From: Candidatus Bathyarchaeota archaeon
GTDB taxonomy: Archaea; Thermoproteota; Bathyarchaeia; Bathyarchaeales; Bathycorpusculaceae
NCBI GenBank assembly: GCA_963707955.1
Contig: OY970176.1
Span: forward strand, 1,248,001-1,312,000
Direction of reading: 5' to 3'
DNA: 64,000 bases
A program made the position numbers and the translations under genes. Numbering within the stretch: position 1 is the stretch's first letter; each line of letters begins with the position of its first letter. The notes below the pieces were generated by a model. It saw only the letters and a program-made list of their open reading frames with translations. It was not told the DNA's origin and ran no database searches. Shown here piece after piece: positions 1-62,093 of the stretch.

Positions 1-800
<800 letters not shown>

Positions 801-2099: not shown

Positions 2100-2180
2100 G
2101 CGCGCGCTAGTGATAAGGAAAAAGCTTACAGCCTCCAACCAAGCACTTTGCGCTGTTCCACAGACAAGACCTGGGCGCGA

Positions 2181-3159
2181 CTATAGCTTCAGGAGTTTTG
2201 CGGCGTTTTCCCCGAGGATCTTCCGCTTCTCCTCGTCGCTTATATCCAGTCGCCTTATTCGCTCCACGGCTTTTTCCAAGTCGCTTATTTGGTGGGGGAA
2301 GTCGCTCCCCAGCAGGATTTTGTCGGCTCCTGAGTAGGCGTAGGATGACATGAGAATGTCCTGATCGTAGCAGATGGAGTCCATCCAGATCTTCTTGAGA
2401 TAGTTGGAGGGGGGTTCTGAGATGTTGGTCTTACATTCGGGGTAGGCGTTGAAGCCCATGTCTATCCTTCCGCGAAGGTAGGGGAAGACGTCTCCTAAGT
2501 GGGAAGCGATGAGCTTCAGGTTGGGCAACTTCTTCATGATGCCGCTGAAGACGAGCCTTAGTACGGCGAGGGCGGTGTCGACTCCGAACCCGAGGATGGG
2601 TACTAGCCTGTAGTCGCTCATCGCTGTGTGATTGAGAGGCGACGTAGGATGAATGAAAAGAGGCACGTTGAGCTTGGCTGCCTTCTCGTAGATCGACATG
2701 AGGTTCTCGGAATCAAGGGGCTTATTGTTCGCGTTTGACATCAGCGTTGCCCCACTCAGGCCGCATTCCTGAACCGCCCTTTCCAGCTCGGTCGCCGCCG
2801 CTTCTGGGTCCTGAAGTGGCAACGCCGCTAGGGCCGCGAATCGGTCCGGCTGCTTCTCAACTATCTCGCCGAAACCATCGTTCGCCAGATGAGCTAATCT
2901 TATACCTCTCATCGGAGCCTCGCGCTCCACGCTGGGCGTCGTTAGAGTAAGCACCCTGCAGGTCAATCTCATGCTTGTTCATCGCCTTGATCCTGTCCCC
3001 GAGATTAACGTGGGGTCCAACGACGATGTTGTAGTCGCCTGCGTATTGTATTAAGAGCCTGCCTTTTTCGTCCTTGGAAAATGACGCGTATCCTTTCACT
3101 CTCTTCAACTCATCGATGTAGGCCTTTGGGTAGAAGTGGTTGTGAAAGTCAACAATCAA
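2181..3159 (-). CDS. Amidohydrolase_2 family protein (ACMSD/decarboxylase-like), split by a frameshift near 2955
   Basis: N-terminal IVDFHNH lies in ORF 2857..3282; LFIHP, SHLG and LLGSDFPH lie in ORF 2181..2972; removing one base at 2954-2956 joins the frames (EIDLQ-VLTLTTP). Confidence 0.85.
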
Positions 3160-3321
3160 GCAAATTCCTCTTCTGCAGAAAACAAGAAACATCCGAATAA
3201 TAAAAGGAGTGAGGCAGTTAGCAGAACCTGAGGGGAGATTTATTCTGAATCCATATTCACGGTTAACAAGTGACTTAACCACGAACCCTCACAAAACGTG
3301 AACCGAGAAGAGGTAAAGGCA

Positions 3322-3477
3322 ATGTGTCACGATATGAGACGATTTGAAAGGATGGCGGAAGAAAAGAGACGCCGCCAGGCCGAAGGAAAAATCGATTCCA
3401 TAATCAACGAGCCCGAAGGAATCGCAGTGGCTCCGGAAACGAAACCTAAAGAAGACCAAATCAAGACGACTTCGTGA
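3322..3477 (+). CDS. Small charged hypothetical protein, 51 aa (MCHDMRRFERMAEEKRRRQ...)
   Basis: Translated by hand; GAGGT SD-like sequence upstream; fills the intergenic gap; below the ORF-track size cutoff. Confidence 0.45.
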   Translation: MCHDMRRFERMAEEKRRRQAEGKIDSIINEPEGIAVAPETKPKEDQIKTTS

Positions 3478-3510
3478 ACGCACCGTCTGCAGAAGAAGAC
3501 GTTGGTTGTA

Positions 3511-4910: not shown

Positions 4911-5129
4911 GATGTCAGGTCTGGTTCCGCTCAGGATATAAGATTTCTGAGGGACATCAGATTGAAATCGTGTGCCAAGGCCTAAGCGCGCTAGTCAAAT
5001 TCCAACGATTCTTCTGTTTCAGTTCTCGTAACTTGTGCAAAAATCTTTGGCCAAGCTGCAGAGGACCAGGTTTCAAGACCTAGTCCACTCATTCTATTCT
5101 TTTAAGTAATAAGAAGCGCGCGCGTTTTT

Positions 5130-5672
5130 TCACAAAGTCTCGATGGTCTGCAAGATCGCGAGTACTCCGGCTTCTCTGGCTCTTCTCTCAAGGTACTGTT
5201 TATCGAGCTTGTTTTCTTGTCTGACCAGCACGCTTTTTACGTCTTGTTCGTCAGTCACTCCCCTGTCGGGTCTGGCCAGCTTGTTAACTATGAAATCCTC
5301 TGCGGAAATGACCCATGCCAGAGTGTTCGCATCCAGTCTGACTTTCTGTCTTCTTCTGAGGTTTTCATCGTCAAAGACAATGCCGTCAGGCTTCAACCAT
5401 AGTTCTATTTCTACTTTCTCTTTTCGGTCCACAACAAGGATCAGAGGGTTATTTGGGGACTTGATAGTTGGGTCAAAATCTGCTGATTGTAGCAGATCAA
5501 GCAGATGGTTTAGTTCTTCGCCGGTTTTGATTGCCACGGCCAAGTCAACGTCGACTGTTGTTCGGATTCTTCCGTAGAAGGGAAGAGCGTAGCCTCCGAT
5601 TATCATGTAGGGGACTTTTTTGTCTTCAAACAGTTTCAGAAGTCTGTGAAGAGACCTTAATATTGCGGGCAA
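5130..5672 (-). CDS. Pol-beta-fold nucleotidyltransferase family protein (DUF6036/AbiEii-like)
   Basis: IIGGYA...RTTVDVDLAV motif; SAEDFIVNKL...R..DEQDV C-terminal motif. Confidence 0.8.
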   Translation of the reverse strand: MPAILRSLHRLLKLFEDKKVPYMIIGGYALPFYGRIRTTVDVDLAVAIKTGEELNHLLDLLQSADFDPTIKSPNNPLILVVDRKEKVEIELWLKPDGIVFDDENLRRRQKVRLDANTLAWVISAEDFIVNKLARPDRGVTDEQDVKSVLVRQENKLDKQYLERRAREAGVLAILQTIETL

Positions 5673-6036
5673 TCGTGTTCAGCTCCATGAAGATTTGGAA
5701 GGGTGAATGACCGTTTGCAACGAGTCTGCTGGCGTATGCTGCGTCTTTCGCTGCGTGGTCTAGGTCTTCTTTTCTCGCTCTGAGCGGTTTGGTTCTTAGT
5801 TTTCTGTAGGTTTCAAGGAACTCGAAGCCGAGAGGCGTGCACGTTACGGTCTTTCGGGGTCTACCTCGCTTCGAACCTGCGACCTGTTTGAACTCGATAA
5901 GCTGCTCTTCGCTCATCTTTCTTAATAAGCCGACGACGTTCGATGTTTTCCATTTCAGTGTCCTAGCTAAGTCTCTGACGCCGCTGGTGGTCGACGCTGC
6001 GGCTTCAAGTATTTGAGCTCGTTGATCCGAAGACAT
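5626..6036 (-). CDS. Winged-helix DNA-binding protein overlapping the nucleotidyltransferase gene
   Basis: GVRDLARTL...LLRKMSEEQLI...RGRPRKTVTCTPLG wHTH pattern; 47-bp overlap with the downstream gene. Confidence 0.72.
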   Translation of the reverse strand: MSSDQRAQILEAAASTTSGVRDLARTLKWKTSNVVGLLRKMSEEQLIEFKQVAGSKRGRPRKTVTCTPLGFEFLETYRKLRTKPLRARKEDLDHAAKDAAYASRLVANGHSPFQIFMELNTIARNIKVSSQTSETV

Positions 6037-6385
6037 TTTGTTTCCCTTTTGGAAACTTATTTACTCTATACGTGAAGCCCCATCTATTTAAACACAGCGC
6101 AACTCGGTTCTGTGAAATCTTCGGTTGATGATTCATTCTTGAACGCCATTGAAGCAACTAGTGCAAGTTTGCCTAATCCCATCATTCAAGTCTTGGAGAG
6201 TGGACCAAACTATTCCACTTTTCCATTTAACCTGCTCTTAAAACACATTTGGGCGCGCTGGTCAGAAAAGGGAAATGGTCAGAACTGTGGGAGGTTTGTC
6301 TGCAGTACGATGATGAGATCTCCACTCAACTTCGGGTTAAGAGACGTGTCCATGGGCTGTTCTTAAGAATTTTTCAACGTGGGCT

Positions 6386-8918: not shown

Positions 8919-9274
8919 CCACCACCTTTTCTTGAAGCCATTCCTCTAAAAGCTTTTTCTCCAGCGCGCGCTTGTCAACTGCACCAAGTTGGCCTGTGTG
9001 AACATGACGATCCTGAAGCGCGCGCGCCTCATAAAATTCGAAGGCTAACCCATTGAGCCCTGTGATTTTAATATAAGGACTTCTGATAGATCACGGAAAT
9101 TTGCGTCTGTGCTCTTAGCGCGCGCTCTTGTTGCGGTTTCTTATGGTTTTTGGAACGCGAGCTCGCACGCGAAAAGCGAGGGAGAAACGAAAGGAGAAAG
9201 GAAAAGTTTTCTCCCACGCATTTCGTTAAGTTATGAAGTGTCAATCTGCGATTTAATTCTACGTTTTTGTACGC

Positions 9275-10729
9275 GTGTGCAAACGATTTGAACAGCGCGC
9301 GCCGCTTTCCGACGACCGCGCGGGCAGAAGAAAGCCACTTTCTCGAGCCCGCGCTATACTTTATTATACTAGGAGAAAGGCAAAAAAATGGGAAGGACGC
9401 GTTTTGGGGAAAGCGGAAAACGCTCGGGAAAGTTGGCAGAGTGCGGCTCAAACTCGGGATCTGCAGAGTGGATCGGAGAGAACAAAGCGTGGCTCCTGGG
9501 TCAATGCTGTTCTTCCCTTTAACGTCGCGTTGGGGCCTGTTGGAACTCTAATCCAGCTTCTTATACTCAACCTGCATGGAACGGTAATTGATGTTGGCTT
9601 AGCTGTCACTCTTTTCAACGCGGTCAGTGTGCCCTCCGCAATAGTGTGGGGTTTTGTCACCGATCGCTTCCATAGGAGAAAGATGACAATCGTCGTAAGC
9701 TACTTGGTGACAGGTGGGGTTCTGGGTTCGTTTCTTTTTGCAACTACGGGATACCTTGTTTCGTTGCTGTACGCGTTGTTTTCGTTTGTATCATCCGCCT
9801 CAACGACGCCGCTGAATCTTCTCATCATGGAGACGGAGCGCAAGCAGAAATGGGCGACCGCTTTCGCCAGGTTCTCCATGATCACGAGCATCGGCAACAC
9901 GGTGGGGTTGATGCTGAGCGTGGTTTGGGGATTTTTCTTTTCTTTGAATTACCTCGTGCTTCTCTTGGCTATTCTCACTGTGGTATCTGCGGTTCTTGCT
10001 GTGTTGATGATACAGGAGCCCAGCGTGATCTTCGAGCGAAACGTCATAGTGCTGAGCAAACCGAGCTTCTTCGAGCGGCTTCGAGCGGACCCTTTCTTCT
10101 TTCTCAGGGTTCCCCGTTTAAGCGATTTCAGAAGAGTTTTCAGGAACCTAAAGTATGAACTTACTCGACAGATGCCTATTCTCTACTTCTCAATCTTCAT
10201 GTTCTACTTCGCGTCGGGACTCTTCAACACTTCAATCGTTTCGTCTCTGCAGGCGAATAGTCTTTCCAGCTTTCTGATCTTCCTCGTCATGACTGTAATG
10301 ATGCTGGCCCAGATAGTGGCGTTCAAGTATTCGGGACCTTACACTGAAAAGAGGTCGCTGGTGAAAACATCTGTGGAAGGGCTCGTGCTCAGATCCGCAT
10401 GTTATGGGGTTCTGGGAGTGTCATTGTACATGATTTCTGGAGTATGGTTTTTGATTCCTGTCTTGATCTTCTATCCACTCGGGGCAGGTGTTGCCTTCTC
10501 GCTCTATTACACTGCGTCCAACACGATGGTGTTCAACACGCTCAGCGGGGCGAGGCAGGGTCAATCCTTAGGAGTGTACAGTGCACTTGTGGGAATCGCC
10601 ACTCTTGTGGGTTCGGCGGTTTCAGGGTTTACGTCTTTTTTCCTCGGTTTCTCCACGACATTCATCCTAGCCGCCGCGTTTATGGGATCATCCGCATGGC
10701 TTGCCTCATTACTGGAGCATTCTAAATAG
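9275..10729 (+). CDS. MFS transporter; true start probably about 9400-9500
   Basis: About 12 hydrophobic segments; WGFVTDRFHRRK MFS loop motif; the basic N-terminal extension looks non-coding. Confidence 0.88.
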   Translation: MCKRFEQRAPLSDDRAGRRKPLSRARAILYYTRRKAKKWEGRVLGKAENARESWQSAAQTRDLQSGSERTKRGSWVNAVLPFNVALGPVGTLIQLLILNLHGTVIDVGLAVTLFNAVSVPSAIVWGFVTDRFHRRKMTIVVSYLVTGGVLGSFLFATTGYLVSLLYALFSFVSSASTTPLNLLIMETERKQKWATAFARFSMITSIGNTVGLMLSVVWGFFFSLNYLVLLLAILTVVSAVLAVLMIQEPSVIFERNVIVLSKPSFFERLRADPFFFLRVPRLSDFRRVFRNLKYELTRQMPILYFSIFMFYFASGLFNTSIVSSLQANSLSSFLIFLVMTVMMLAQIVAFKYSGPYTEKRSLVKTSVEGLVLRSACYGVLGVSLYMISGVWFLIPVLIFYPLGAGVAFSLYYTASNTMVFNTLSGARQGQSLGVYSALVGIATLVGSAVSGFTSFFLGFSTTFILAAAFMGSSAWLASLLEHSK

Positions 10730-10854: not shown

Positions 10855-11469
10855 ATGAGCTTTTTCAAATGGTTGTCCAACAAACTCAATCCTCCTAAAG
10901 CAAGAATTATGCTTGAAACTCAGAAAGGTGAGTACGCACTTGGGGAAGAACTGAGGGGCGACATTCAAATCATGTCAGAAGAAGAGTTCGAGGTGGAGCG
11001 AATAGCGGTAAATTTGTCATGTTGGGAGAATCTCAGGAAAACGCGTACGGTTTCCACTCAGGTCGGTGACACTCAGAGGCACAGACAAGAGCAATATTGG
11101 GATCAGGCGAAACTGTATTCGGATCAATTCGTTGTCTGCAACGCTGCAAGAATACCTCAAGGTTTCAATAGTAAGTATCCGTTCACTCTGAGAATACCAA
11201 CGGTTGCGAGGGAAACATACTACAGTGTTGATAACAACGTGAAATGGTGGATGCAGGCAACCGTGAGAGTTAGAGGACACCCAAGCATGGAAACAGAAAA
11301 TCGCGAAATCTTGGTCGCAAAACAACAGACTCCTCCTCCGCCTCCGCCGATAGTTTCAAAAGAAACCATTCGGGAAGTGGTTCTGATACCTTGCCAGTAC
11401 TGCGGCGGACTCATGCCACAAACTTCAATCTTCTGTCCAAACTGCGGAGCAAGAAGAAAAGCTTCATGA
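10855..11469 (+). CDS. Arrestin-N/SpoOM-like beta-sandwich protein with a polyproline linker and C-terminal zinc ribbon
   Basis: EYALGEELRGDIQI...YPFTLRIP...VKWWMQATV pattern; TPPPPPP linker; CQYCG...CPNCG. Confidence 0.65.
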   Translation: MSFFKWLSNKLNPPKARIMLETQKGEYALGEELRGDIQIMSEEEFEVERIAVNLSCWENLRKTRTVSTQVGDTQRHRQEQYWDQAKLYSDQFVVCNAARIPQGFNSKYPFTLRIPTVARETYYSVDNNVKWWMQATVRVRGHPSMETENREILVAKQQTPPPPPPIVSKETIREVVLIPCQYCGGLMPQTSIFCPNCGARRKAS

Positions 11470-11755
11470 AAATCAGAATCTAAGACTTCGAATGTTCGGA
11501 CACAGCTGATCATCGCTTGAGCAAGTCTTTTTAGAATCTGCCCGAAGTCATTTGAAGATCTTGAACCCGTCTGTGTAGGCGTTCTCGTGTCCGCTGTCTG
11601 GCTGGAAGTGCCAGACGCGCTTTGAGCATGGCGATTTTCATGTTTACCCAGATGATTTGCAGGATCAGTATGATACCACTTGCCATGACAATTCCCAACC
11701 TTCAAAACCGCCGGCGATGGTTAAGCTTGACACACTTGTTATTGGGGATTACGCA

Positions 11756-11986
11756 TTATGCTTGTTTGAGTAACTTCAGGAATTCCTTTTTTGAGAAGCC
11801 CGTGTCCTCTATTATCTTCATAAGTAACCCTCTGCTGATTTCTTCTCCAGCATGAACAGGGATGACAGTGATTCTACCGTCAGAGTGTTTCATAACAACA
11901 TGACTGCCACGCTTTCGGACAACCACAAACCCTAGGGTAGAAAGAAGTTTTATGATTTTCTTGGCTGGTTGAGGTTTCAAGCTCAT
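11756..11986 (-). CDS. hicA: HicA family toxin (mRNA interferase)
   Basis: LGFVVVRKRGSHVVMKHSDGRITVIPVH HicA signature. Confidence 0.93.
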   Translation of the reverse strand: MSLKPQPAKKIIKLLSTLGFVVVRKRGSHVVMKHSDGRITVIPVHAGEEISRGLLMKIIEDTGFSKKEFLKLLKQA

Positions 11987-12201
11987 TGAGCCGGAACCTC
12001 TACGAACTGAAATCCTACCAGTTCGATACGTTCTTTTCGTCTTGCTCCTTCAGCCTCTAAGTACGCTTGAATGGCTTCTCTGATTCTCTTGGTCAACTCA
12101 TCCAGAGTCTTGGCCTGAGTGTGGCATCCAGGTAGCTCTGGAACTGAAGCAATGTAGTACCCCTCTTCATCTTTTTCGACGACAACGCCGAACTTCACCA
12201 A
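11983..12201 (-). CDS. hicB: HicB family antitoxin, short form
   Basis: YIASVPELPGCHTQAKTLDEL signature; 4-bp overlap with hicA. Confidence 0.93.
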   Translation of the reverse strand: MVKFGVVVEKDEEGYYIASVPELPGCHTQAKTLDELTKRIREAIQAYLEAEGARRKERIELVGFQFVEVPAQ

Positions 12202-12264
12202 ATCACCGAGAAATATTGACTGCGAACTATTACTAAAGCCTTCTTTCTTCGAGGCGTGCTCGCG

Positions 12265-15200
12265 TTATGGGTAGTGTTGTCCGAAGTTGGCGCAGGCGAT
12301 GATTATGTCGCTCATGTCGATTTTGCCGTTGCCGTTTATGTCGCAGTTTGGATTATAATTCGGCTGTCCGACTGTTGAACCAAACGCCAAGCAGAGGCTG
12401 ATTATGTCGCCCACGTCAACTCTGCCGTTTCCGTCAACGTCGCCTGGAATCGTTAAGATCACATTGCCGCCTGTGTAGTTGTTGTTTGAAATGTTCGTTT
12501 CGCCCGGAACAGGCCAGGCGTAGGCGCTTATGGTGTAGTTGCCGTAGGGATAGCCTGCAGTGTTCAAAACGAAGGTAATGTTTAACGAGTTTCCGCTTGA
12601 CAAGGTGACGTTCTGTGAGGAAGCAAAAGCCATGGTGACGTTTTCTGAAGCGATAAAGAGGCTGGCATAGACTGTTACGTTGAACGTTTCTGGGAGATCG
12701 CCCAAGTCTGCTGCTGTAACGGTTACGTTCAGGCCGTCGCCTTGGCCGACCACGCACTTCGATGAATTAACATTGGTGACGGCTACGTCATGGATATGCA
12801 CGGTGACAGACGCGTTGTCAGACGTTGCCTGCACTCCGACGCTGTCGGTGACATTCACATAGACTGTGTGGAAACCTACAGATGTAGGAGTGAAAACCCA
12901 TGTTGCGTTTGTGGCGCCAGAAACGGGGACGCCGTCTAGGTACCACTGATAAGAGTAGGGAGACGTACCGCCCGTGATGCTCGACGTGAAGAGTTGAGAC
13001 TGACCAACAACCACACCGATTAAAGTGGGCGAAACACTGACCAAGGGCGAAGGGTTAACGATGACGGTAGTGACGTTGGATTCTGCCATAGACCCAACAC
13101 CGTCCGTTACGTTAACGTAGACGTTGTAGAAGCCAATAGAGATTGGCGTAAAGGTCCACGTGAAACCCGTGGCACCCTGCACTTCTGAGCCGTTCAAGTA
13201 CCATTGGTATGTGAACGACGAAGTGCCGCCAGAGACTATGGAAGTGAATAAGTGCGATTGGCCCGTGTCTACAGCAACAGAGGTGGGCGTTATGCTGATT
13301 GAAAGTGGCTCGTTCACTGTCACTGGAACACTATTGGACATTGCAACGGCGCTCACTGAGTCTGTGACGTTTAAGTAGACCGTGTAAGAGCCTGCGGATG
13401 CTGGCGTAAACGTCCACGTAATACTCGTGGCACCTGAGACGGGAGAACCATTCAAATACCATTGATACGAGTAGGCAGACGTGCCACCTGAGACAGTTGA
13501 GGTGAAGAGTTGAGACTGACCGAAATCCATCGTGACTGAAGGCGGCGAGACAATGACCGAAAGCTGCCTATTCACAGTAATTAGAACAGTATTGGAAGTT
13601 GCCGCCTGGCCCGATGCGTCAGTGACATTCAAGTAAACCGTGAAAGAACCTGAAGAAGAAGGCATAAACGTCCATGCACTGCCAGTAGCACCTGAGACTT
13701 GGGTGCCGTTCAGGTACCACTGATAAGAGTAAGGCGACGTGCCACCTGACACGCCACAGGTGAACAGTTGAGACTGACCAAGATCCATCGTGATGGAAGG
13801 GGGCGAGATAACGACCGAAGGCTGCTTATTCACAGTGACACTCGCAAAAGTAAGGTCACTGAATCCGACGCTGTCAGTGACCTCGACGTAAACAGCATAG
13901 TAACCTGAGAGTGTAGGCGTGAACGTCCAAGTTGCGTTGGTGGCTCCAGGAACGACAGCACTGTTAAGAAGCCATTGGTACGTGTACGGTGAGATGCCTC
14001 CAGAAACTGTGGATACGAAGAGTTGAGACCCGCCGACATCCATAGTGATTGAAGCTGGCGAAACATTAACTGAGGGCCACGGATAAACATTGACGGAAGC
14101 GGTGCTAGATTCTGCTGTAAACCCAGCATTGTCGGTTACGTTAACGTAGATGCTGTAAAAGCCAGATGAACTCGGCGTAAAGGTCCAGCCGCTAAAAACG
14201 GCTCTTGAAACCGGTGTGCCATTCAAACACCATTGATAAGAGTATGCTAACGCACCTCCTGAAGCGACCGAATTGAATAACTGTGACTGGTCGACCTCCA
14301 AGGTTGCGGAGCTAGACGAAATGTTAACAGAAAGCGAATTAGCGCAGTAAGGATTCATCAAAGGATAATTGTCCACGTCGGCAGAACCAATCGTGTACGG
14401 CGTGTCCCCTATCCCGTCGCTTCCAATCAAGTTCTGGCTTGGGCCACACATTATGTCTTGACCGTTGTAGTCGCTCCAAAAGTTTCCGCCTGAAGGATAA
14501 CCGTTATCCCAGTAGTTTGCTGGCGAAGGATGCGGTTCATCCCACGCCACGTACGCGTTGAGCACGTTGCTCAAGAGGTTGTTGTGGAAAATGTAGTTTG
14601 ACCAACAATCATAAACGTAGACGCCGTACTCGTTTGAAGTCAAATTGTTGCCAACTACGTAATTGTAGTAGGAACAGTAGAGTACTACGCCGCCGAAGTT
14701 GGACGATACGGAGTTTGCCAAGCTGTTCGCGCTCACGTTGTTGTAGCATGAGTAGTAAAGCCAAACTCCCGCCCAAGTGTTCGCAGATACGTTGTTTCCA
14801 CTCAAGACGTTGTACTGCGAGCCCACTATGTAGACCCCGTAACTGTTGCCAGACAGGTTGGCTTCAAACACGCAGCAGCTCGAGCACCCTGACTCATAAA
14901 TCCCGAAAAAAAACGACCTTACCGACACGTTCCTAATCGTCACGTCGCTCAAGCCACTGAGGTAGATCCCGTTCGAGCCCGTGACCATTCCTCCCTGAAC
15001 CGTGTGTCCTCCTCCGTCCAAGACCGTGTTGTTTCTTTCGACCACGATTCCGTTGTAAGCTGGGTAGCTCACGTTGCCGGTGATTGTGTAAGTTTTACTA
15101 TCAGAAGTTACGATGGGAGCTCCAGACGGGGTGATAGAACCATCAGCGTTAATGTAAACCGTCGCAGCCTGTGCGCGCACCAGCCCAACGTTAAACGCCA

Positions 15201-15279
15201 ATGCCAACATGCTTGTTACGAGCAAAACCAGCATTACCCCGGAAACAGGCTTCCGCAAGAACCCGAACCCCCCCTCCAA
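12265..15279 (-). CDS. Secreted surface protein: NosD/PbH1 beta-helix, about six PKD/Ig-like repeats, CARDB-like domain, C-terminal dockerin-like domain
   Basis: Signal peptide; LSGNNVSAN repeats; WDNGYPSGGNFWSDY; about 86-aa repeats containing GG..PYSYQWYLNG; paired GDVDGNGRVD / DINGNGKID calcium loops. Confidence 0.88.
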   Translation of the reverse strand: MEGGFGFLRKPVSGVMLVLLVTSMLALAFNVGLVRAQAATVYINADGSITPSGAPIVTSDSKTYTITGNVSYPAYNGIVVERNNTVLDGGGHTVQGGMVTGSNGIYLSGLSDVTIRNVSVRSFFFGIYESGCSSCCVFEANLSGNSYGVYIVGSQYNVLSGNNVSANTWAGVWLYYSCYNNVSANSLANSVSSNFGGVVLYCSYYNYVVGNNLTSNEYGVYVYDCWSNYIFHNNLLSNVLNAYVAWDEPHPSPANYWDNGYPSGGNFWSDYNGQDIMCGPSQNLIGSDGIGDTPYTIGSADVDNYPLMNPYCANSLSVNISSSSATLEVDQSQLFNSVASGGALAYSYQWCLNGTPVSRAVFSGWTFTPSSSGFYSIYVNVTDNAGFTAESSTASVNVYPWPSVNVSPASITMDVGGSQLFVSTVSGGISPYTYQWLLNSAVVPGATNATWTFTPTLSGYYAVYVEVTDSVGFSDLTFASVTVNKQPSVVISPPSITMDLGQSQLFTCGVSGGTSPYSYQWYLNGTQVSGATGSAWTFMPSSSGSFTVYLNVTDASGQAATSNTVLITVNRQLSVIVSPPSVTMDFGQSQLFTSTVSGGTSAYSYQWYLNGSPVSGATSITWTFTPASAGSYTVYLNVTDSVSAVAMSNSVPVTVNEPLSISITPTSVAVDTGQSHLFTSIVSGGTSSFTYQWYLNGSEVQGATGFTWTFTPISIGFYNVYVNVTDGVGSMAESNVTTVIVNPSPLVSVSPTLIGVVVGQSQLFTSSITGGTSPYSYQWYLDGVPVSGATNATWVFTPTSVGFHTVYVNVTDSVGVQATSDNASVTVHIHDVAVTNVNSSKCVVGQGDGLNVTVTAADLGDLPETFNVTVYASLFIASENVTMAFASSQNVTLSSGNSLNITFVLNTAGYPYGNYTISAYAWPVPGETNISNNNYTGGNVILTIPGDVDGNGRVDVGDIISLCLAFGSTVGQPNYNPNCDINGNGKIDMSDIIIACANFGQHYP

Positions 15280-15433
15280 ACTCTAAATCAACTTGACGTG
15301 ATAAAAGGTTTATGAAAGAAACTTCCACCATCATCCTCTACAGTTTCTATTCACACTATCCATGATGCCGAACTAGGTGCGGCACTATTTTATATAGTCT
15401 AGTTTTGGTTCAAATTTAGGAGTAAACTTAGCT

Positions 15434-15724
15434 GTGTCAACAATGAAATTTTTGAAAACGGACCGAGGAGTAGTCCTGAATGTCTACGTTAAGCCAGACT
15501 CGAGAGAATTCAAAATTGAGGTAGAAGATGATGAACTTGTGGCGCATTGTAAAGAGTCTCCAGTAAAAGGCAAGGTTGATAAAGAGTTGATAAAGGAACT
15601 TTCAAAGATTTTCAAGAGGAAAGTTGAAATTATTTCTGGTTTTACTTCAAGGCAGAAGAAGATTCTGATTAGAGATGTCAGCTCAGAGGAAGTCAACCGT
15701 ATTCTTTCTAAATGTAAACACTAG
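15434..15724 (+). CDS. DUF167 (YggU/UPF0235) family protein
   Basis: LNVYVKPDS...SPVKGKVDKELIKELSK...ISGFTSRQKKILI. Confidence 0.88.
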   Translation: MSTMKFLKTDRGVVLNVYVKPDSREFKIEVEDDELVAHCKESPVKGKVDKELIKELSKIFKRKVEIISGFTSRQKKILIRDVSSEEVNRILSKCKH

Positions 15725-15867
15725 CGCGCTTATTCTCACTCACACTCCCTGTGCGTGTGCGCGTGTGTGCGTGCTGTAGGATAAAGCTTTACCCTTTTTT
15801 CTTTTCGCACCTAGCGCGCGCTTGAGTCGAAGCAAAACAGAAATCTATTGGCAGCGTAAGAATTGTC

Positions 15868-16245
15868 ATGGGGAGTTTTGAAATGAACAGACCAAGCAGA
15901 CTGTCTGACCAAACGGTCACGTTTGTCACGGACGGCAACTTTGCTATACATGTGACGGACTTGGGGAAAGCGGAGGATTTCTACGGCAATGTTTTGGGGT
16001 TTAAACTCTCGAAAAGAACGGATGAGCGGTTTGTCTATGATACGGGCAAAATCACCCTCTACGTAGTGAAGGACTAGAAGGTTATTCCGTTCATTCCAGC
16101 GCTCGAGGTCAGCAACTACGAGAAGGCAAAGCAGTATCTCATGAAAAATGGTTGTAGAATAATCAAAGAGTGGTCTGAAGATAGAGCACTTTACTTCGAA
16201 GACCTATTTGGCATCGTGATCGACATCGTTGAAAAATCGTCATAG
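15868..16245 (+). pseudogene. VOC/glyoxalase family gene with an in-frame TAG at 16075-16077
   Basis: AIHVTDLGKAEDFYGNVLGF before the stop; the same frame continues to ALYFEDLFGIVIDIVEKSS* after it. Confidence 0.8.
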
Positions 16246-16267
16246 AGCGCGCGCGTACACATAATGG

Positions 16268-16998
16268 TCATTGATTCAAGCCAAGCATGTCCAGTAGGTT
16301 TTTGATGTCAACTGCAATGTATGGCGAATAGCAACCTGCGTCTTGTCTCGGGGTCGGGTTGGTTATCAGTCCTTCTTTCATCATGAGACCGAGTGCTCCT
16401 TCAAAAATGAGGTGATATAGGGGGTTGAAGGCTTCTTCAAATGCAATCCCGTTCTTTGCGGGTGAAGTCTTGGCATAGACCTCCAACATCTCAGACTTTT
16501 CGGCCTCTAGAGACTCTGCAAACTGTCTCAGAATTAGCTCTGCGACTAGCTTCATTTTGGCCAGGTCGTCAGGGAAAAAGAAAGGTCTGTTGATTCTCCA
16601 CCTGTTGCATTTGAGGGCAACATACCCAAGCGTCAGCAACAAGGTCACCTCTGCCAGCAACCGAGCGTTGTCGCCGCCTGCTTTTGTCTTCAGTTCGCTT
16701 GTCGACAAATCCTCCTTTGAGAGAGCCTCCAAGATTCGGCCGATCTTCTCCATCTCTGCCTCTACGTCAGCTTGCTCAACCTGTTCTGCCCAGTGCGATG
16801 CTATGTCCGGAAAAGCCATCCTGAATCCTGCGGGAGGAAGCCTTCCATGAGTGCCAAACCAGTACTTGCCGAAACCCGAGTTATTTCCCCACATCCAACC
16901 CTCTTTAAGATTGAAGGAACCCGACTTAAGACCTGAAAACACGTACTTGCCTCCGCCGGGCATGTTTCTTCCGGCAGAAAGCAACTTCTTGGACTTCA
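16268..16998 (-). pseudogene. Hypothetical protein (wHTH-containing) whose 5' part is cut at the transposon left end
   Basis: The reading frame runs up to the inverted repeat at 16999 with no convincing native start. Confidence 0.6.
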
Positions 16999-17021
16999 GA
17001 TACTGTCCACTTAATCGGGAT
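16999..17021 (+). repeat. Left terminal inverted repeat GATACTGTCCACTTAATCGGGAT
   Basis: Exact reverse complement of 23569-23591; resembles IS6-family ends (G.CACTGT). Confidence 0.93.
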
Positions 17022-17079
17022 AGGGTTCTGTCAAGTCTTCGGTTGATACGAGCCCTTGTAAAAAATCGGTTGACGAAGA

Positions 17080-17598
17080 TTAGCCTTCCGAGATATGTTT
17101 CTTTATTTTGTCCCTCATTACCCCTTTTAGCTTACTCAAACGGTCCGTAATTTCAATATTTGCTTGGTCTTCTGGAGGAAGGTCCGCGAACCACTCTTCA
17201 TACTCGTCTTCCTCACCTAGGTCGGGGGGTTCTCCATATATCTCAATTTGTTTCTCCGTAAGGAAGGTGTCAATGTCGTCTATTTCCTTTTTCAATTCCT
17301 CTCTCAGTTTTTCAGGGAGGAAGAGTCCAGTACTGCCATCCAGAAAAACAGTAACGGCATTTCGAAAATCGGGAAAACTCTTGTAACCCTGTTTTAATAA
17401 TTCATCGAGCTTTACTAGGGCATCTTTTCTGTCCTCATGATACAGTTGCATTCTTGTAATTGTCAGACTTAGTTCTCGTTGAGTTTTAAGGCTCTTTTCA
17501 GAAAAGTAATGCGCTATGATTTGTGTAACGATTGCTATTACAACTCCAGAAATCAGCGGGAAAATATACAGGCTGTAATCGGACAAAAGCATTCCCAA
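17080..17598 (-). CDS. Hypothetical protein with one N-terminal transmembrane helix and an acidic helical domain (transposon cargo)
   Basis: 172-aa ORF, hydrophobic N-terminal segment, co-oriented with the other cargo genes. Confidence 0.7.
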   Translation of the reverse strand: MGMLLSDYSLYIFPLISGVVIAIVTQIIAHYFSEKSLKTQRELSLTITRMQLYHEDRKDALVKLDELLKQGYKSFPDFRNAVTVFLDGSTGLFLPEKLREELKKEIDDIDTFLTEKQIEIYGEPPDLGEEDEYEEWFADLPPEDQANIEITDRLSKLKGVMRDKIKKHISEG

Positions 17599-17659
17599 AA
17601 AAGTATGACTATCGTTTGGATATAACCGTATTGTTGCCTCGATATTGTAAACTTGTTTC

Positions 17660-19033: not shown

Positions 19034-19095
19034 CTAGTTACCTTGAACTAGAATTAGTGCAACATCCTATTAACTCGTTTGCTGTTGTTTAATGG

Positions 19096-19290
19096 TTATT
19101 TTGCGAACTGTATGTCTCGATACTTGGTTTTTCCCACGTTTTTTTCGAGGTTTGCTTTAATCTGTTTTTCCCATTCGTCCTCTGTCAAGATTCCCTTTCG
19201 TTCAAGAACTTCAACGAGACTGGAAAGCATCATATCGAGACTATCAAGTTCCTCAGCAAGTTCTCTTGTTAGATTCTTTTTCTTGCTCAT
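19096..19290 (-). CDS. Small hypothetical protein, 64 aa
   Basis: ATGA overlap with the upstream CopG-like ORF; LVEVLERKGILTEDEW helical pattern. Confidence 0.7.
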   Translation of the reverse strand: MSKKKNLTRELAEELDSLDMMLSSLVEVLERKGILTEDEWEKQIKANLEKNVGKTKYRDIQFAK

Positions 19291-19442
19291 TGCTTTCCCT
19301 TCGTAGGTAAATATCCTTTCTCAGATAGAAAAGCTATGACTATAGTTCTTACTATCTCTGAATCACTTTCGCCGAAAGTGCCTTTCAGATTGTCCACGAT
19401 TTTCTTTATCTCATCTGGAAGACTTAACAAGATTCTTTTCAT
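19287..19442 (-). CDS. CopG/ribbon-helix-helix-like regulator, 51 aa, not in the ORF track
   Basis: Hand translation MKRILLSLPDEIKKIVDNLKGTFGESDSEIVRTIVIAFLSEKGYLPTKGKQ; ATGA overlaps at both ends. Confidence 0.8.
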   Translation of the reverse strand: MKRILLSLPDEIKKIVDNLKGTFGESDSEIVRTIVIAFLSEKGYLPTKGKQ

Positions 19443-20332: not shown

Positions 20333-20341
20333 CGTTATATC

Positions 20342-20377
20342 ACCAGAGTCATATACAGTATATAACTGGTTTATAAG
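20342..20377 (-). promoter_or_regulatory. Putative transposase promoter (TATA box) with a palindromic operator
   Basis: CTTATAAA on the minus strand at 20370-20377; GTCATATAC-A-GTATATAAC near-palindrome at 20348-20366 between the TATA box and the ATG; similar half-site GTCATAGAC at 20408. Confidence 0.5.
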
Positions 20378-59489: not shown

Positions 59490-60341
59490 CTATTTGCCTA
59501 TTACTGTAGACTTCAACATTTCAAGGTAGGATTCGGCTGTCCCTATGTCTATTCTTTTTTCATTAGATCCCAATTTTAAACCGAAAACCTTGCAGTTCCA
59601 TTCTATCAATAGTCGAAGTGCTTCTGCTAATTGGATTTCTTCGTTCTTGTCGGGTCTCACTTCCTTGATGGCTTTGTATATTATCGGTTTGAACATGTAC
59701 AGGGCAACTATTGCTAGGTTTGATTGGGGTTTCTGAGGCTTCTCAACGACGTTTGTGACTCGAAATATGCCAGGTTTTATTTCTTTTCCTGTCACTACGC
59801 CGTAGTTTCTAGGGTCTGGGACTTCTTCGAGCAAAAATAGGGTGTCTGCGTCGTATTCTTCAAAGGTTTCTGTTGCCCTTCTCAGGTGATTGTTGTTTTT
59901 TGAAATGACTAGGTCGTCGCCTGCTTGCATCAGGAATTTTTCGCTTCCGGTGAATAAGGATGCTCTCCCAACAGCGTCTCCAAACCCTTTTGGTTTCGGT
60001 TGGTTTATGAACACTACGTTTGACTCGTTTATCTTTCTGTAGAAATCCTGCAGTTCTTCCGCGTTGTCTTTCCTATTTCTGTTTTCCAAGTATTTTATGA
60101 AATCTTCGTCTGGCGAGAAATGGTCTTCTATTGCTCTCTTGCCTTTGCCTACTATGAAGGCGAATTCCCTGAAGTGCACGTCATATAATTGCTCGAAGAT
60201 CGCTTGCAGCATTGGTTTCATGCATAGTTTGCCGTTTTTCGTAAGGGCGACAATCGGAAGCATCTCTTTCGGTAGTTCCTTTGTTATTGGCAGAAGTCTA
60301 GTCCCGAGACCTGCTGCCGGAATCACTGCCTTCTTGAGCAA
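59490..60341 (-). CDS. UTP-glucose-1-phosphate uridylyltransferase-like sugar nucleotidyltransferase
   Basis: KAVIPAAGLGTRLLPITKELPKEMLP, QPKPKGFGDAV, VEKP. Confidence 0.9.
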   Translation of the reverse strand: MLKKAVIPAAGLGTRLLPITKELPKEMLPIVALTKNGKLCMKPMLQAIFEQLYDVHFREFAFIVGKGKRAIEDHFSPDEDFIKYLENRNRKDNAEELQDFYRKINESNVVFINQPKPKGFGDAVGRASLFTGSEKFLMQAGDDLVISKNNNHLRRATETFEEYDADTLFLLEEVPDPRNYGVVTGKEIKPGIFRVTNVVEKPQKPQSNLAIVALYMFKPIIYKAIKEVRPDKNEEIQLAEALRLLIEWNCKVFGLKLGSNEKRIDIGTAESYLEMLKSTVIGK

Positions 60342-60364
60342 AGATGAACCTCACGTTGTTTTGG

Positions 60365-61726
60365 TTATGAGGGTGGAATTAAAGCTGCGGGTTCTCCGAG
60401 GCCGACCGCTACGTAGCGCAGTTTTTTCGAGAATTTTCCCGGGTCGTAGATTCTTCTGCCGTCTATTAAAATTGGTTTTCGCATGTTGCGTATGAAGTCT
60501 TCTGGACTCAGTTTCTTGAACTCTTCCCATTCCGTCACGAGTATAGCGCAATCAGCATTTTTTAGACATTCAATCGCTGAGGAAGCGTAGCCTATTTTTT
60601 CTTTGAGAATTTTTCTGGTGTTCGCAATTGCCATCGGATCGTATGCCGTTATCGCCGCTCCTTCTTTCAGAAGCCCCTTGATCAATTCCATTGAGCGTGC
60701 CTCTCTCAAGTCGTCCGTGTTTGGTTTAAATGCTAAGCCCAAGATAGCTATATTCTTGCCTTTTAGTACTCCAAGTTCTTTTTTCGTTTTTTGTATCGTG
60801 AACCTTACCTGGTCCTCATTTGCTCTCCATGCTGCCTGTATCAACTCTGGATTATAGCCAAGTCCTTTGGAAAAGCTAATGAGAGCTTTCAGGTCTTTGG
60901 CGAAGCAGTTTCCTCCCCACCCCAAGCCTGCGTCTAGAAAGTACGGGTTTATTCTATGGTCTTTTCCTATTGCCTCTGCAATTTTTCTCACGTCTGTGCC
61001 CGGAGTTTTTTCACATATGTTGGCTATGGTGTTTATGAAGCTTACTTTTGTGGCTAAGAAGGCGTTGTTGGCGTATTTTATTAGCTCTGCTGTTGGGATG
61101 TTTGTCCTGATTATCGGCGGCAAGTTTTCGCCGTGGAATTCTCTGTAAAGATCTTCCAGCGTATCCGCAGATCTTTTGTTGCATCCTCCTATTACTACAT
61201 AGTCTGGGTTTAGCGTGCCTCTGATCGCGTTACCTTCACGTAGGAACTCTGGGTTGGCGCACAAGAGAAAACCCTCGCAGCATTTTTGGCCGCTGTTCCT
61301 TTCGATTGTTGGCCTTACAATATTCTGCGTGGTACCCGGAGTCACCGTGCTTTTTACCACAACGAGGTGAGCTACCCGGCCGTCTTTCTTTTTCAGGGCC
61401 TTACCCACTTCCTTTGACGCTTTTATTATATAGCTGAGGCTTATGCTTCCATCCGTCTTTGATGGTGTTCCAACTGTGATGAAAGTGATATCTGATTTAA
61501 GGATGGCTTCCTCGTTGTTTGACGTGATTTTTAGGTTTCCAGTTTTTATTGCTTTTATGAGCAGTTCATTGAGGTTGGGTTCGTAGAAGGGAGGGTTTCC
61601 CCTTCTTATCTGGTTCGCTTTGGCCCGGTCTATTTCTGAGCCTGTGACTTTGTAGCCTTTTGTAGCGAAGCAGACTGCTGTGCAAAGTCCAACAGATCCT
61701 AAGCCTATGAAAGAAAGCTTGTACAT
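60365..61726 (-). CDS. ugd: UDP-glucose/GDP-mannose dehydrogenase family protein
   Basis: GLGSVG, VKSTVTPG, NPEFLREG, KYANNAF, GWGGNCFAKD, GLAFKPNTDDLRE. Confidence 0.93.
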   Translation of the reverse strand: MYKLSFIGLGSVGLCTAVCFATKGYKVTGSEIDRAKANQIRRGNPPFYEPNLNELLIKAIKTGNLKITSNNEEAILKSDITFITVGTPSKTDGSISLSYIIKASKEVGKALKKKDGRVAHLVVVKSTVTPGTTQNIVRPTIERNSGQKCCEGFLLCANPEFLREGNAIRGTLNPDYVVIGGCNKRSADTLEDLYREFHGENLPPIIRTNIPTAELIKYANNAFLATKVSFINTIANICEKTPGTDVRKIAEAIGKDHRINPYFLDAGLGWGGNCFAKDLKALISFSKGLGYNPELIQAAWRANEDQVRFTIQKTKKELGVLKGKNIAILGLAFKPNTDDLREARSMELIKGLLKEGAAITAYDPMAIANTRKILKEKIGYASSAIECLKNADCAILVTEWEEFKKLSPEDFIRNMRKPILIDGRRIYDPGKFSKKLRYVAVGLGEPAALIPPS

Positions 61727-62093
61727 ATGCTCATTCCTTTTTGAGAGACTTCAATGAAATGATGATAATTAACTTTTGCATTTGCACTATTTACAAACTG
61801 GTAGGCAGCTGAGAATCTGTAAGTCCAACAAAAATCCCACTTGAGGTAAAAAAAGAAAACAACATTTAATGCCGATGAAGAACACGTCGAGAATTATCAA
61901 GGGGTGAAGAATGGCCAAAGATTCTATTAGATTGCGGCATTCACGGTTCGTCGCGCGCGCTGCTTGCAAACTAATTCGACTGGCAAATTCTCGCGGAAAA
62001 ATGCGGCGTGATATAGAAGATTCTTGAGAATTGAAACAGTGGACCCCATCGACTTCGTTCAAGGTGTCATGCAATGCTACGCTTCAGGGGGCG

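Follow-up and report, generated by a model that had tools for sequence, protein, structure and literature searches.

In one genus of uncultured sediment archaea, non-coding DNA is strewn with a short palindrome, the octanucleotide GCGCGCGC. We tentatively favour the reading that these alternating CG tracts serve as target and duplicated flank of an IS5-family transposon system and probably also as its excision scar. So read, the tracts may mark sites at which mobile DNA and accessory genes were inserted, forming a visible record of genome reshuffling. We analysed a 64-kb window (the whole stretch of DNA under study, 64,000 nucleotides) together with the genome from which it comes (G000, a Bathyarchaeia archaeon, 2.35 Mb) and genomes of the same and other genera.

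All 18 alternating CG runs of at least 8 nt that the original prediction had counted in the window were recovered, each to the nucleotide, where 0.6 would be expected by chance (GCGCGCGC, n=18, against 0.60±0.86, maximum 3, in 100 dinucleotide-preserving shuffles). Seventeen lie within the first 37 kb and none in the transposon, as claimed; positions 16256–24102 lack even runs of 6 nt or more. The window holds 20 further CG runs of 6–7 nt. Genome-wide, GCGCGCGC occurs 464 times against 26–34 expected from Markov models of order 1–3. It is the commonest non-coding 8-mer, with 419 of its 464 copies non-coding and the next unrelated word reaching 78, so that the proposed k-mer comparison of intergenic and coding DNA came out in favour of enrichment. 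The genome contains 455 CG runs of at least 8 nt, and the lengths form a hump at 8 nt (7 nt, n=186; 8 nt, n=267; 9 nt, n=130; 10 nt, n=56; 11 nt, n=2; none longer). Other alternating dinucleotides decayed smoothly, with 17–69 runs at 8 nt and no hump. Alternating purine–pyrimidine repeats other than CG were not enriched, and CG tracts reach (CG)4–5 only. The consensus is tA-GCGCGCGC-Ta; around the 455 tracts no conserved flank beyond this consensus and no hairpin was found. Its core, AGCGCGCGCT, is exactly AGCGCT with the core doubled, and a halo of transition-decayed copies surrounds the motif.

This length profile bears on the idea that the tracts are a mutational by-product, arising by dinucleotide slippage of GCGC seeds in unconstrained DNA or by a HIP1-like methylation/repair drive. 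The non-coding enrichment and the 2-nt length differences seen between orthologous tracts would fit such an origin, and cyanobacterial HIP1 (GCGATCGC), within the limits of the description that we drew on, offers a precedent for an iterated, GC-rich, perfect 8-bp palindrome that is lineage-specific and numbers in the hundreds per genome. HIP1 often lies inside genes and is linked to DNA methyltransferases. The archaeal tract, in contrast, is ~93% non-coding, sits at structural breakpoints and has no C5 methylase partner according to a PF00145 search of G000 (N4/N6 methylases are present); a HIP1-type palindrome was rejected because, despite the over-representation, only 30 of the 455 tracts lie fully in genes and PF00145 found no match. 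The hump at 8 nt and the hard stop at 11 nt, with no geometric tail and no counterpart in other dinucleotide repeats, also argue against a by-product, as do transition variants that are not depleted and, for slippage, a coincidence with breakpoints (see below) that it leaves unexplained. We regard this origin as highly improbable.

The window features are collected in Table 1. Coding status was assigned using a crude gene caller of our own, which called 76% of the genome coding; on this basis 411 of the 455 tracts were fully intergenic, 30 were fully inside genes and 14 straddled a gene end, in agreement with the claim that they are mostly intergenic. All types of intergenic region hold tracts, with at most five copies per region, and dense arrays occur in ORF-poor DNA. 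When distances were compared with random within-region placement, positions were near-uniform, which gave little support to a suggested role as a terminator component. Tracts avoid the last 40 nt before start codons, are enriched 100–150 nt upstream and show a slight excess at gene 3′ ends. An intrinsic terminator or promoter element was rejected, as there was no fixed distance to gene ends apart from the depletion 0–40 nt upstream of starts. The claim that tract pairs enclose single genes held for 15814–16255 (a VOC gene interrupted by an in-frame stop), for 25228–28130 and perhaps for 36089–36704, whereas most intervals hold no ORF or two to seven. Single-gene bracketing is thus a tendency and no rule.

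Table 1. Tracts and associated features of the 64-kb window (positions counted from its first nucleotide)
Position	Strand	Feature
2100..2107		GCGCGCGC right after PGK stop codon; junction of conserved and G000-specific DNA
4986..4991		GCGCGC, left end of 1255-bp G000 insertion (GCGCGCTAGTCA)
4992..6252	-	Inserted module: DUF2204/DUF6036 nucleotidyltransferase and 136-aa ORF; missing from G007
5116..5124		GCGCGCGCG, 6 nt past nucleotidyltransferase stop; G001 homology begins directly after
6253..6258		GCGCGC, right end of 1255-bp G000 insertion (GCGCGCTGGTCA)
8964..8971		GCGCGCGC, common to G007, where a 7.1-kb insert comes next
9018..9027		GCGCGCGCGC within 143-bp stretch standing in place of the G007 insert
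9118..9125		GCGCGCGC where G007 homology restarts; G007 form degenerate, GCAAGCGCC
9295..9302		GCGCGCGC upstream of MFS transporter gene; kept in G007
10867..40277		G000-specific island, 29.4 kb (G000 1258867-1288277) vs 1.9 kb in G007; 19 runs of at least 6 nt
15814..15821		GCGCGCGC upstream of VOC pseudogene
16247..16255		GCGCGCGCG right after VOC frame; 13 nt from stop of next gene (minus strand)
16256..24102		Tract-free low-GC (39-45%) segment: N6/N4 DNA methylase, IS240-type DDE transposase, HATPase_c_3 protein
25228..25235		GCGCGCGC, 87 nt upstream of 868-aa surface protein gene
28123..28130		GCGCGCGC, 202 nt downstream of 868-aa surface protein gene
30115..30122		GCGCGCGC, 2 nt from stop of minus-strand MFS gene
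33385..33392		GCGCGCGC, 7 nt upstream of small minus-strand ORF
33530..33538		CGCGCGCGC, 33 nt upstream of Big_3_5/CARDB surface protein gene
35616..35625		CGCGCGCGCG, 80 nt downstream of Big_3_5/CARDB gene pair
35854..35861		CGCGCGCG, intergenic
36089..36096		GCGCGCGC in longest ORF 35914-36651 (minus, no Pfam family); putative coding only
36696..36704		CGCGCGCGC, 45 nt upstream of ORF 35914-36651
61952..61960		CGCGCGCGC between UDP-glucose dehydrogenase and epimerase genes; sole tract of at least 8 nt in conserved right half of window

A relative with ~92% identity (G007) was used for block-edge comparison, and 122 non-coding G000 tracts were scored. The predicted coincidence with breakpoints was observed: 22 of the 122 lay within 5 nt of a homology block edge, compared with 2.2% of random intergenic sites (~8-fold). 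Unaligned DNA held 82 of the 122 (random sites 44%) and aligned DNA only 13 (random sites 50%), and strain-specific islands were packed with tracts. At the position of the first tract of the window, both G001 and G007 lack a tract and run on into a common, different sequence, and G007 carries one GCGCGCTGGTCA at its empty site for the 1255-bp G000 insertion. Forty-two clean indels between G000 and G007 were classified by eye, approximately 28 without a tract and 14 with one; the latter were heterogeneous, being two-sided, one-sided or with the tract in the short allele only. At many junctions the tract is present in one genome or on one side only. A DNA uptake sequence was also considered, an over-represented word that a competence receptor recognises and that lies in core DNA, often in pairs within terminators; the tracts are scarce in conserved aligned DNA, and the 3′-end excess is only slight.

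Orthologous non-coding tracts were conserved in 5 of 18 aligned cases, compared with 969 of 2203 control 8-mers (44%). The tracts are conserved no better than neutral DNA, and purifying selection left no sign on them. In some orthologous alleles the difference is a block of equal length rather than a simple insertion. These data weigh on the proposal that the tract is a cis-element of accessory DNA kept between genes by selection, such as a supercoil sink prone to forming Z-DNA or a site for a dimeric DNA-binding protein (a silencer, an insulator or a nucleoid protein). Its perfect palindromy, defined flanks and genus-wide spread, and the avoidance and enrichment upstream of start codons described above, would suit such an element, as would the additional TBP, TFB, Alba and HTH genes carried by the islands. 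The low conservation, the halo of decayed copies, the occupation of every intergenic type at near-uniform positions, with at most five copies per region, and the dense arrays in ORF-poor DNA are all contrary to it. In addition, (CG)4 is short for Z-DNA, whose formation calls for alternating purine–pyrimidine tracts of a length that can flip at physiological supercoiling, and the breakpoint coincidence and the target-site duplication (TSD) behaviour would be left unexplained. We consider a selected cis-element quite doubtful.

An IS of ~1.06 kb and MITEs of ~205, 183, 173 and 122 bp have a common terminal inverted repeat (TIR), (TA/AT)GC(G/T)TGTTCCTAAATTC, and are bordered on both sides by GCGCGC; the TIRs and these flanks are visible in an alignment of 18 MITE copies. 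The IS copy in G001 (G001:C24:15246-16330), whose transposase frame is split, has two ORFs between its TIRs, matching DUF772 (1.7e-9) and DDE_Tnp_1 (2.3e-7), and lies between GTGCACGC and GCGCGC. The transposase copies in G000 are both degenerate, and a 329-aa frame in G009 is intact. Two insertions could be polarised by a third genome, with G001 and G007 providing the empty sites: a pre-existing tract was entered and 6 bp were duplicated, converting GCGCGCGC into GCGCGCGC[insert]GCGCGC. With DUF772 and DDE_Tnp_1 between TIRs and a target that is duplicated at filled sites but single at empty ones, the element is an IS5-family IS with MITEs, in which the 6-bp duplication is not textbook for the family. 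The bases outside flanked MITEs (A...T) are those outside solo 8-mers. A contrary case is the MITE at G000 1976042, for which the G007 empty site has no tract. In G000, 60 TIR ends adjoin a CG tract; only ~60 of the roughly 1150 tracts of at least 6 nt adjoin a recognisable TIR, and few of the 455 longer ones do. Most free-standing 8-mers are probably the remains of departed elements, which presupposes the scar step set out below. Cargo genes also lie between TIR pairs: an MFS transporter together with a response regulator, and a cupin.

Among intragenomic repeats, 244 of 1025 non-coding ends had a tract of at least 6 nt no more than 5 nt away, compared with 2.6% under the null. Some copies lack TIRs and run exactly from tract to tract, such as 715099-715683 and 1421017-1421601 (100%, 585 bp) and three further duplicates. 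The notion of a cassette boundary or shuffling site stood in so far as some segments were copied or inserted exactly tract to tract, whereas the best-documented events are transposon insertions and not site-specific recombination of cassettes. An unlikely alternative is that crossover in conservative site-specific recombination takes place at the tract, in which tract-bounded circles would move in an integron-like manner via a 10–12-bp palindromic site and the MITEs would be mere riders. It would account for one tract at empty sites and two at filled ones, for TIR-less segments that are exact in both copies, and for tracts separating single genes in both orientations with integron-like cargo (GNAT acetyltransferases, flavodoxin and VOC). 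Moreover, the largest array is headed by two tyrosine recombinase genes, and G007 island edges carry integrase genes. The 8-mer, however, lacks conserved recombinase-binding arms or a hairpin, and a 10–12-bp site is, to our knowledge, too short for known tyrosine recombinases. The integrase family is not genus-specific, occurring in 34 of the 41 genomes, many junctions have the tract in one paralogue or one genome only, and the polarised case shows 6+8 nt with the MITE TIRs inside, as a staggered-cut duplication predicts.

Integrons themselves can be set apart. An attC is an imperfect inverted repeat of 57–141 nt that folds into a hairpin. Our arrays are like integron cassette arrays, among them those of archaea (Ghaly et al. 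2022, PMC9668308), in having single small accessory genes (GNAT, VOC and flavodoxin), a repeated site between them and adjacent tyrosine recombinase genes; they differ in having no attC hairpin, no recognised IntI, mixed orientations and a bare 8–12-bp palindrome. The stated lack of resemblance to attC was upheld: flank complementarity at the 455 tracts equalled the shuffled control, with 291 tracts without any extension and a longest extension of 5 nt, and genes occur in both orientations. Integron cassettes mostly point one way downstream of intI/attI; a cassette array was also rejected for the 855–869 kb array, where genes alternate strand and the adjacent recombinases match Phage_integrase only.

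The motif was found in all ten other genomes of the genus and was near-absent from 30 genomes of other genera, confirming that it is lineage-specific. AGCGCGCGCT has 82 copies in G009, 56 in G008 and 39 in G004, where TIR matches number only 0–1, and neither G008 nor G004 yielded a transposase homologue; the tract is thus more widespread, and probably older, than the MITE family. Across the set, transposase homologues occur in 6 of 11 genus genomes and 1 of 30 others. Ku is present in 8 of 11 and 2 of 30 respectively, in G016 and G040 it is not accompanied by tracts, and the genus carries a LigD PrimPol–Ku–ligase/phosphoesterase operon. The co-distribution of Ku and transposase is in effect one phylogenetic event.

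The presence of this NHEJ operon also accords with a different origin, in which a restriction-type nuclease would make staggered 4-nt cuts at AGCGCT/RGCGCY and the tracts would be the resulting fill-in scars: filling and blunt-joining by Ku/LigD would give A-GCGC-GCGC-T, and where restriction fragments of incoming DNA are joined, scars would come to lie at the junctions. Overhang fill-in is a known signature of LigD-dependent joining, the consensus AGCGCGCGCT equals AGCGCT with a doubled core, and this product, no longer containing RGCGCY and hence uncuttable, would account for the fixed length. Against this, AGCGCT is only mildly under-represented (503 compared with 622 expected), none of the six indel alleles found where non-coding tracts align is a clean 4-nt GCGC duplication, no nuclease of this specificity was identified, and the GCGCGC flanks of MITEs would be unexplained. 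Fill-in scars are very unlikely.

Under the favoured transposon reading, a (GC)3–5 tract would be the preferred target of an IS5-family transposon specific to the genus and of the MITEs derived from it, with part of the tract duplicated at each insertion. Excision, of which no allele was seen, would then leave two GCGCGC ends, which Ku/LigD may rejoin through overlaps of 6, 4 or 2 nt in the self-complementary repeat to yield (GC)3, (GC)4 or (GC)5 and never anything longer, matching the observed length hump. As such scars would disrupt genes or shift the reading frame, they would be kept only in non-coding, mostly dispensable DNA. MITE–gene–MITE composites could carry genes, and later loss of the MITEs would leave a gene bracketed by bare tracts, whereas IS-adjacent deletions or replacements could leave a tract on one side of a breakpoint.

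Palindromic targets that are duplicated are known for IS481 in Bordetella (6-bp target NCTAGN) and for IS5 (YTAR). As in those systems, a DDE transposon and its MITEs enter a short palindromic word, so that every copy is flanked by it. Here, in contrast, the target word itself is amplified, with 455 free-standing copies at a preferred length of 8 nt, far above the number of element copies, and the tract, unlike the MITE family, extends across the genus. REP elements, which go with RAYT transposases, likewise form hundreds of short intergenic palindromic repeats in one lineage; they are imperfect hairpins of 20–40 nt with a conserved head, unlike a perfect 8-nt palindrome without a loop. Tc1/mariner excision footprints and PiggyMac–Ku IES excision in ciliates exemplify transposase/NHEJ-coupled DNA elimination. 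The logic proposed here would be similar, with a transposase cut at a short palindromic boundary, joining by Ku/ligase and a palindromic scar from both ends; it would differ in being prokaryotic and in drawing the scar from the duplicated target rather than from the transposon ends.

A bolder and rather unlikely extension is that a transposase cutting (GC)n, together with bacterial-type Ku/LigD, constitutes a gene-shuffling platform in which the tract is a reusable docking and rejoining signal. If so, accessory genes would travel as tract-bounded modules in either orientation, and after every visit a scar of defined sequence would stay behind, ready to act as a further docking site. Such a system would be a prokaryotic counterpart of the integron built from a transposon and NHEJ, and its logic would be that of V(D)J joining or of IES excision in ciliates.

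All 18 alternating C/G runs of at least 8 nt (hereafter tracts) that the original prediction had counted by eye in the window (47.8% G+C) were confirmed to the nucleotide, and they were among 38 such runs of at least 6 nt. Their excess over chance, which had also been claimed, was equally clear, as GCGCGCGC occurred 18 times in the window against 0.60 ± 0.86 (maximum 3) in 100 dinucleotide-preserving shuffles. In the whole source genome (G000, a single contig of 2,346,764 bp), of which the window spans C1:1248001-1312000, we found 455 tracts, 419 of which contained the core GCGCGCGC, and 464 copies of this octamer against 26-34 expected under Markov models of order 1-3. The suggested k-mer enrichment in intergenic DNA held as well, GCGCGCGC being the commonest non-coding 8-mer with 419 copies compared with 78 for the next unrelated word. 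Sorted by length, the G000 runs numbered 7871 (4 nt), 1774 (5 nt), 510 (6 nt), 186 (7 nt), 267 (8 nt), 130 (9 nt), 56 (10 nt) and 2 (11 nt), with none longer. The counts thus form a hump at 8 nt and then break off abruptly; for the five other alternating dinucleotides of this genome the decay with length was smooth. By arithmetic, the 9-mers and CG-started 10-mers came close to the frequency expected from chance C or G flanks. Slippage or a HIP1-like drive as the origin of the tracts seems scarcely credible to us, and no C5 methylase (PF00145) was found in the G000 genome, which speaks against the latter. Position -1 of the tracts was A in 61% of cases and position +1 was T in 62%, with weaker preferences for T and A at -2 and +2, respectively; there was neither conservation beyond +2 nor an extended half-site, and a search for a wider repeat around the tracts found none. 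A mariner-type TA target-site duplication was rejected: TA...TA framed 19 tracts, with 23.4 expected, so that the left and right flanks are independent. Flank-to-flank pairing was no better than chance across the 455 tracts, and thus there is no hidden hairpin.

The proposed lineage specificity was borne out at the level of the genus. AGCGCGCGCT was present in 114 copies in G000 and in 7-92 copies in each of the 10 other same-genus genomes, compared with 0-9 copies in the 30 genomes taken from other genera in its family and order; its reversed control word reached 0-4 copies across the genomes compared. When a large surface protein was used as tblastn query, the best relatives all came from Candidatus Bathyarchaeia MAGs, which places the organism in that archaeal class. 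When 18 non-coding tract sites were aligned between G000 and its same-genus relative G007, 5 were identical, 7 carried substitutions (mostly transitions) and 6 carried indels, and control non-coding 8-mers were identical in 969 of 2203 cases (44%). In non-coding DNA, one-mismatch variants surrounded the exact word as a halo of copies decayed by transitions. Judged from sequence, the tracts show no sign of selective maintenance, and we regard a selected protein-binding or structural element as decidedly unlikely. A restriction fill-in scar at AGCGCT appears very improbable, since this site is only weakly depleted (503 copies vs 622 expected) and no 4-nt allele was present among the aligned non-coding tracts of G000 and G007.

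With our own crude gene caller, which uses dicodon scores and under-calls genes (2133 genes, 76% coding), 411 of the 455 tracts were fully intergenic, 30 lay fully within genes and 14 straddled a gene end. They occurred in all four types of intergenic region, with at least one tract in 304 of the 1753 regions and up to five in some, and their placement inside these regions was near random with three exceptions: a depletion 0-40 nt upstream of starts (3.5% vs 9%), an excess 100-150 nt upstream of starts (17% vs 11%) and a slight enrichment 0-6 nt past the stop (4% vs 1.8%). In 21 genes a TAG stop overlapped the tract.

We compared G000 with the whole 790-kb contig C1 of G007 (~92% identical in aligned blocks), a single contig from a single relative on which the comparative results chiefly rest. 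In the syntenic zone, 22 of 122 non-coding tracts lay within 5 nt of a homology-block end, compared with 2.2% of random intergenic 8-mers and 2.8% of isolated GCGC/CGCG 4-mers, in agreement with the earlier suggestion that synteny breakpoints coincide with tracts. Unaligned DNA held 82 of the 122 (random sites, 44%) and aligned DNA only 13 (random sites, 50%). Seen from the block ends, 53 of 240 had a run of at least 6 nt no more than 10 nt away; for 27 of them this was so in G000 alone, for 13 in G007 alone and for the other 13 in the two genomes alike. Strain-specific islands are where the tracts pile up (see the Table), and it is because of the window's own island that 17 of its 18 tracts lie in the first 37 kb.

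Tract-rich islands and associated features in the source genome (G000) and the same-genus genomes G007 and G001
Feature	Position	Size or state	Runs of at least 6 nt
G000 island	1414420-1427855	13.4 kb, absent in G007	19
G000 island	1678856-1687005	8.1 kb	17
G007 island	777014-787609	10.6 kb vs 286 bp	7
Window island	10867-40277 (window)	29.4 kb vs 1.9 kb in G007	19
~320-bp mobile segment	G000 2247530-2247852; G007:C1:556062-556379; G001:C20:32361-32685		
GGATAAAACTTTACC sites	locus L122 3875-3898, 5032-5050, 8635-8658; G000 394043-394482, 2033861, 2271775		
Extra TBP/TFIIB/Alba copies	G000 872185-873146 (L125 5185-6146), 1416538-1417390 (L123 3538-4390), 525914-526471		

Genome-wide, 27 clusters of five or more tracts contain 218 of the 455. 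The largest (G000 848-875 kb) consists of single genes in both orientations with 1-3 tracts between them, its cargo including three GNAT acetyltransferases, a flavodoxin, a glycosyltransferase, a VTT protein, DUF5518 and a response regulator, and two tyrosine recombinase genes lie at its head. This recombinase was considered as a genus-specific partner of the tract and set aside as unspecific, its relatives being present in 34 of 41 genomes. That the tract is a conservative recombination site for cassettes is unlikely in our view, if not negligible. Archaeal integrons, as described in PMC9668308, have canonical attC hairpins and co-oriented cassettes; the tracts differ in lacking a hairpin and in bracketing cluster genes of both orientations, and are not an integron. 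The original prediction had likewise seen no resemblance to an integron attC. Other tract arrays are ORF-poor, and in a dense array the only repeats were the tract itself and a second short motif. The latter, GGATAAAACTTTACC, often lies within GGGTTTGG-like repeats and occurs in islands and at the ends of duplicated segments; AAACTTTA and ACTTTACC belong to the over-represented 8-mers. Tract-rich islands also carry extra basal transcription factor genes, namely TBP with an adjacent Ssb-like OB-fold gene, a TFIIB fragment and Alba, and the TBP block is duplicated at ~91% identity.

Within the window, the tract at 2100 stands immediately after the PGK stop codon, and since G007 and a further same-genus genome, G001, share a different, tract-less continuation, the G000 arrangement is derived, starting with the tract. 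G007 lacks a 1255-bp module that encodes a nucleotidyltransferase and holds a small ORF (4997-6253); the module ends in G000 are GCGCGCTAGTCA...GCGCGCTGGTCA, and the G007 equivalent is one GCGCGCTGGTCA. Homology to G001 picks up right after the tract at 5116, and 7.1 kb lies between the G007 copies of tracts 8964 and 9118. The transposon-bearing block at 16256-24102, described earlier as tract-free, is indeed without any run. It is low in GC (39-45%), encodes an N6/N4 DNA methylase, an IS240-type DDE transposase, a 412-aa protein of no known family and a HATPase_c_3 protein, and probably represents a recent acquisition, a defence or R-M module. The 'VOC' gene between tracts 15814 and 16255 is a glyoxalase/bleomycin-resistance-type frame (15868-16245, +) that is interrupted once, by an in-frame stop after codon 69, and is a candidate for read-through if not a pseudogene. 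M16 peptidase domains extend over three consecutive ORFs of 419, 161 and 260 aa at 6386-8918 (-), the second and third of which look like one gene split in two, and overlapping glycosyltransferase ORFs at 42254-44094 (+), one with the GT4 N-terminal domain (42254-42877) and one with full GT4 (42697-44094), may be a duplication remnant or a frameshift. An Rfam scan of the window gave a tRNA at 53585-53659 (-) as its sole match. Of the 20 public sequencing runs listed, none was of RNA. Logan contigs from four runs matched window 1-20000 in pieces mostly below 2.5 kb, too short to show population variants, and yielded no decisive joint, only incidental breaks at 4993, 9296 and 16243 in one run.

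Self-BLAST of G000 linked the tracts to intragenomic repeats. Among non-coding repeat ends, 244 of 1025 lay within 5 nt of a run of at least 6 nt, compared with 2.6% of random non-coding positions, and most of these tract-adjoining ends belonged to families of MITEs (short non-autonomous derivatives of an IS5-family element) of ~205, 183 and 173 bp. Their terminal inverted repeat (TIR) is (TA/AT)GC(G/T)TGTTCCTAAATTC with GCGCGC on both outer sides, and 60 TIR ends adjoin a CG tract in G000. Some TIR pairs enclose cargo genes (an MFS transporter and response regulator; a cupin); an autonomous element was sought between distant TIR pairs in G000, and only cargo genes were found. A G001 element of 1.06 kb shares these TIRs, carries DUF772 and DDE_Tnp_1 ORFs (IS5 family) and is flanked by GTGCACGC and GCGCGC. 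At G000 1559002-1560753, 1750 bp with MITE ends lie between GCGCGCGC and GCGCGC, where G001 and G007 have a solo GCGCGCGC, and at 1936375-1936498 a 122-bp MITE lies between GCGCGC and GCGCGT, where the two relatives have CGCGCGC and ACGCGC. Both insertions are polarised by G001 and G007, and they show entry of the element into a tract that was already there, 6 bp of which become duplicated. Outside the flanked MITEs stand A before and T after, the same bases as around solo 8-mers.

Tract-bounded DNA is a unit of mobility. TIR-less examples are an exact tract-to-tract duplicate of 585 bp (715099-715683 and 1421017-1421601, 100%) and the tract-bounded pairs 999121-1000073 and 2297512-2298458 (93%), and 807367-807673 and 1044397-1044699. 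In several paralogue pairs homology stops at a tract found in one copy only, and in none of three pairs did it continue past the tract cluster, as it would after a split by insertion. A ~320-bp mobile segment, 94-96% identical, occupies non-syntenic places in three genomes; in G007 GCGCGCGC stands at one of its junctions, and the G000 empty site (1751497) is without it. A 5996-bp unit is present in two tandem copies at G000 2096997-2108976 (self-BLAST).

Taken together, the octamer is a genus-specific mark of variable DNA and of breakpoints, and the duplicated insertion target of an IS5-family transposon/MITE system. We tentatively favour, with somewhat less than even confidence, a reading in which the tract is target, duplicated flank and, in most free-standing 8-mers, excision scar. 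Excision would leave two GCGCGC ends, self-complementary in 2-nt steps, and rejoining via 6-, 4- or 2-nt overlaps would yield 6, 8 or 10 nt, rarely 12, products that would fit the hump and stop in run length. Such scars would be tolerated only outside genes; genes with bare tracts on either side would result where MITE-gene-MITE composites later lost their MITEs, and IS-adjacent deletions or replacements would leave one-sided tracts. G000 encodes a complete bacterial-type NHEJ operon (C1:957178-960233; locus L141 5178-8233) with genes for a LigD PrimPol, for Ku and for a fusion of ATP-dependent ligase and 3'-phosphoesterase. Of the 11 same-genus genomes, 8 yielded Ku (the three misses being 65-89% complete), as did 2 of 30 outside the genus, those two with 0-1 motif copies; transposase homologues were found in 6 of 11 (including G000, where both copies are degenerate) vs 1 of 30 others, counts across kin that are not independent evidence. 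An intact transposase homologue is the 329-aa frame of G009. Against the scar reading, only ~60 of ~1150 runs adjoin a TIR, three same-genus genomes (G009, G008 and G004) are tract-rich yet have 0-1 TIR matches, one MITE has a tract-less empty site, and ~28 of 42 clean G000/G007 indels, classified by eye, are without a tract, the rest being heterogeneous; no excision event was seen.

Our search of the full-text literature, whose coverage omits most subscription journals, returned nothing on a comparable archaeal motif. What is known of genome dynamics in Bathyarchaeia, which are uncultured and abundant in sediments, comes from MAGs only, and the tract is a simple sequence mark that tells conserved core from strain-specific DNA. 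As a record of past insertions that falls at rearrangement breakpoints, it can aid in delimiting islands, interpreting MAG fragmentation and tracing gene flow within the genus. The transposase, whose 6-bp GC target is apparently strict, would be a candidate enzyme for tools of site-directed insertion. If the free-standing tracts are indeed scars, they would be one of the few documented instances in which an archaeon repairs transposon excision by Ku/LigD end joining, and would show a target word amplified through its own use.
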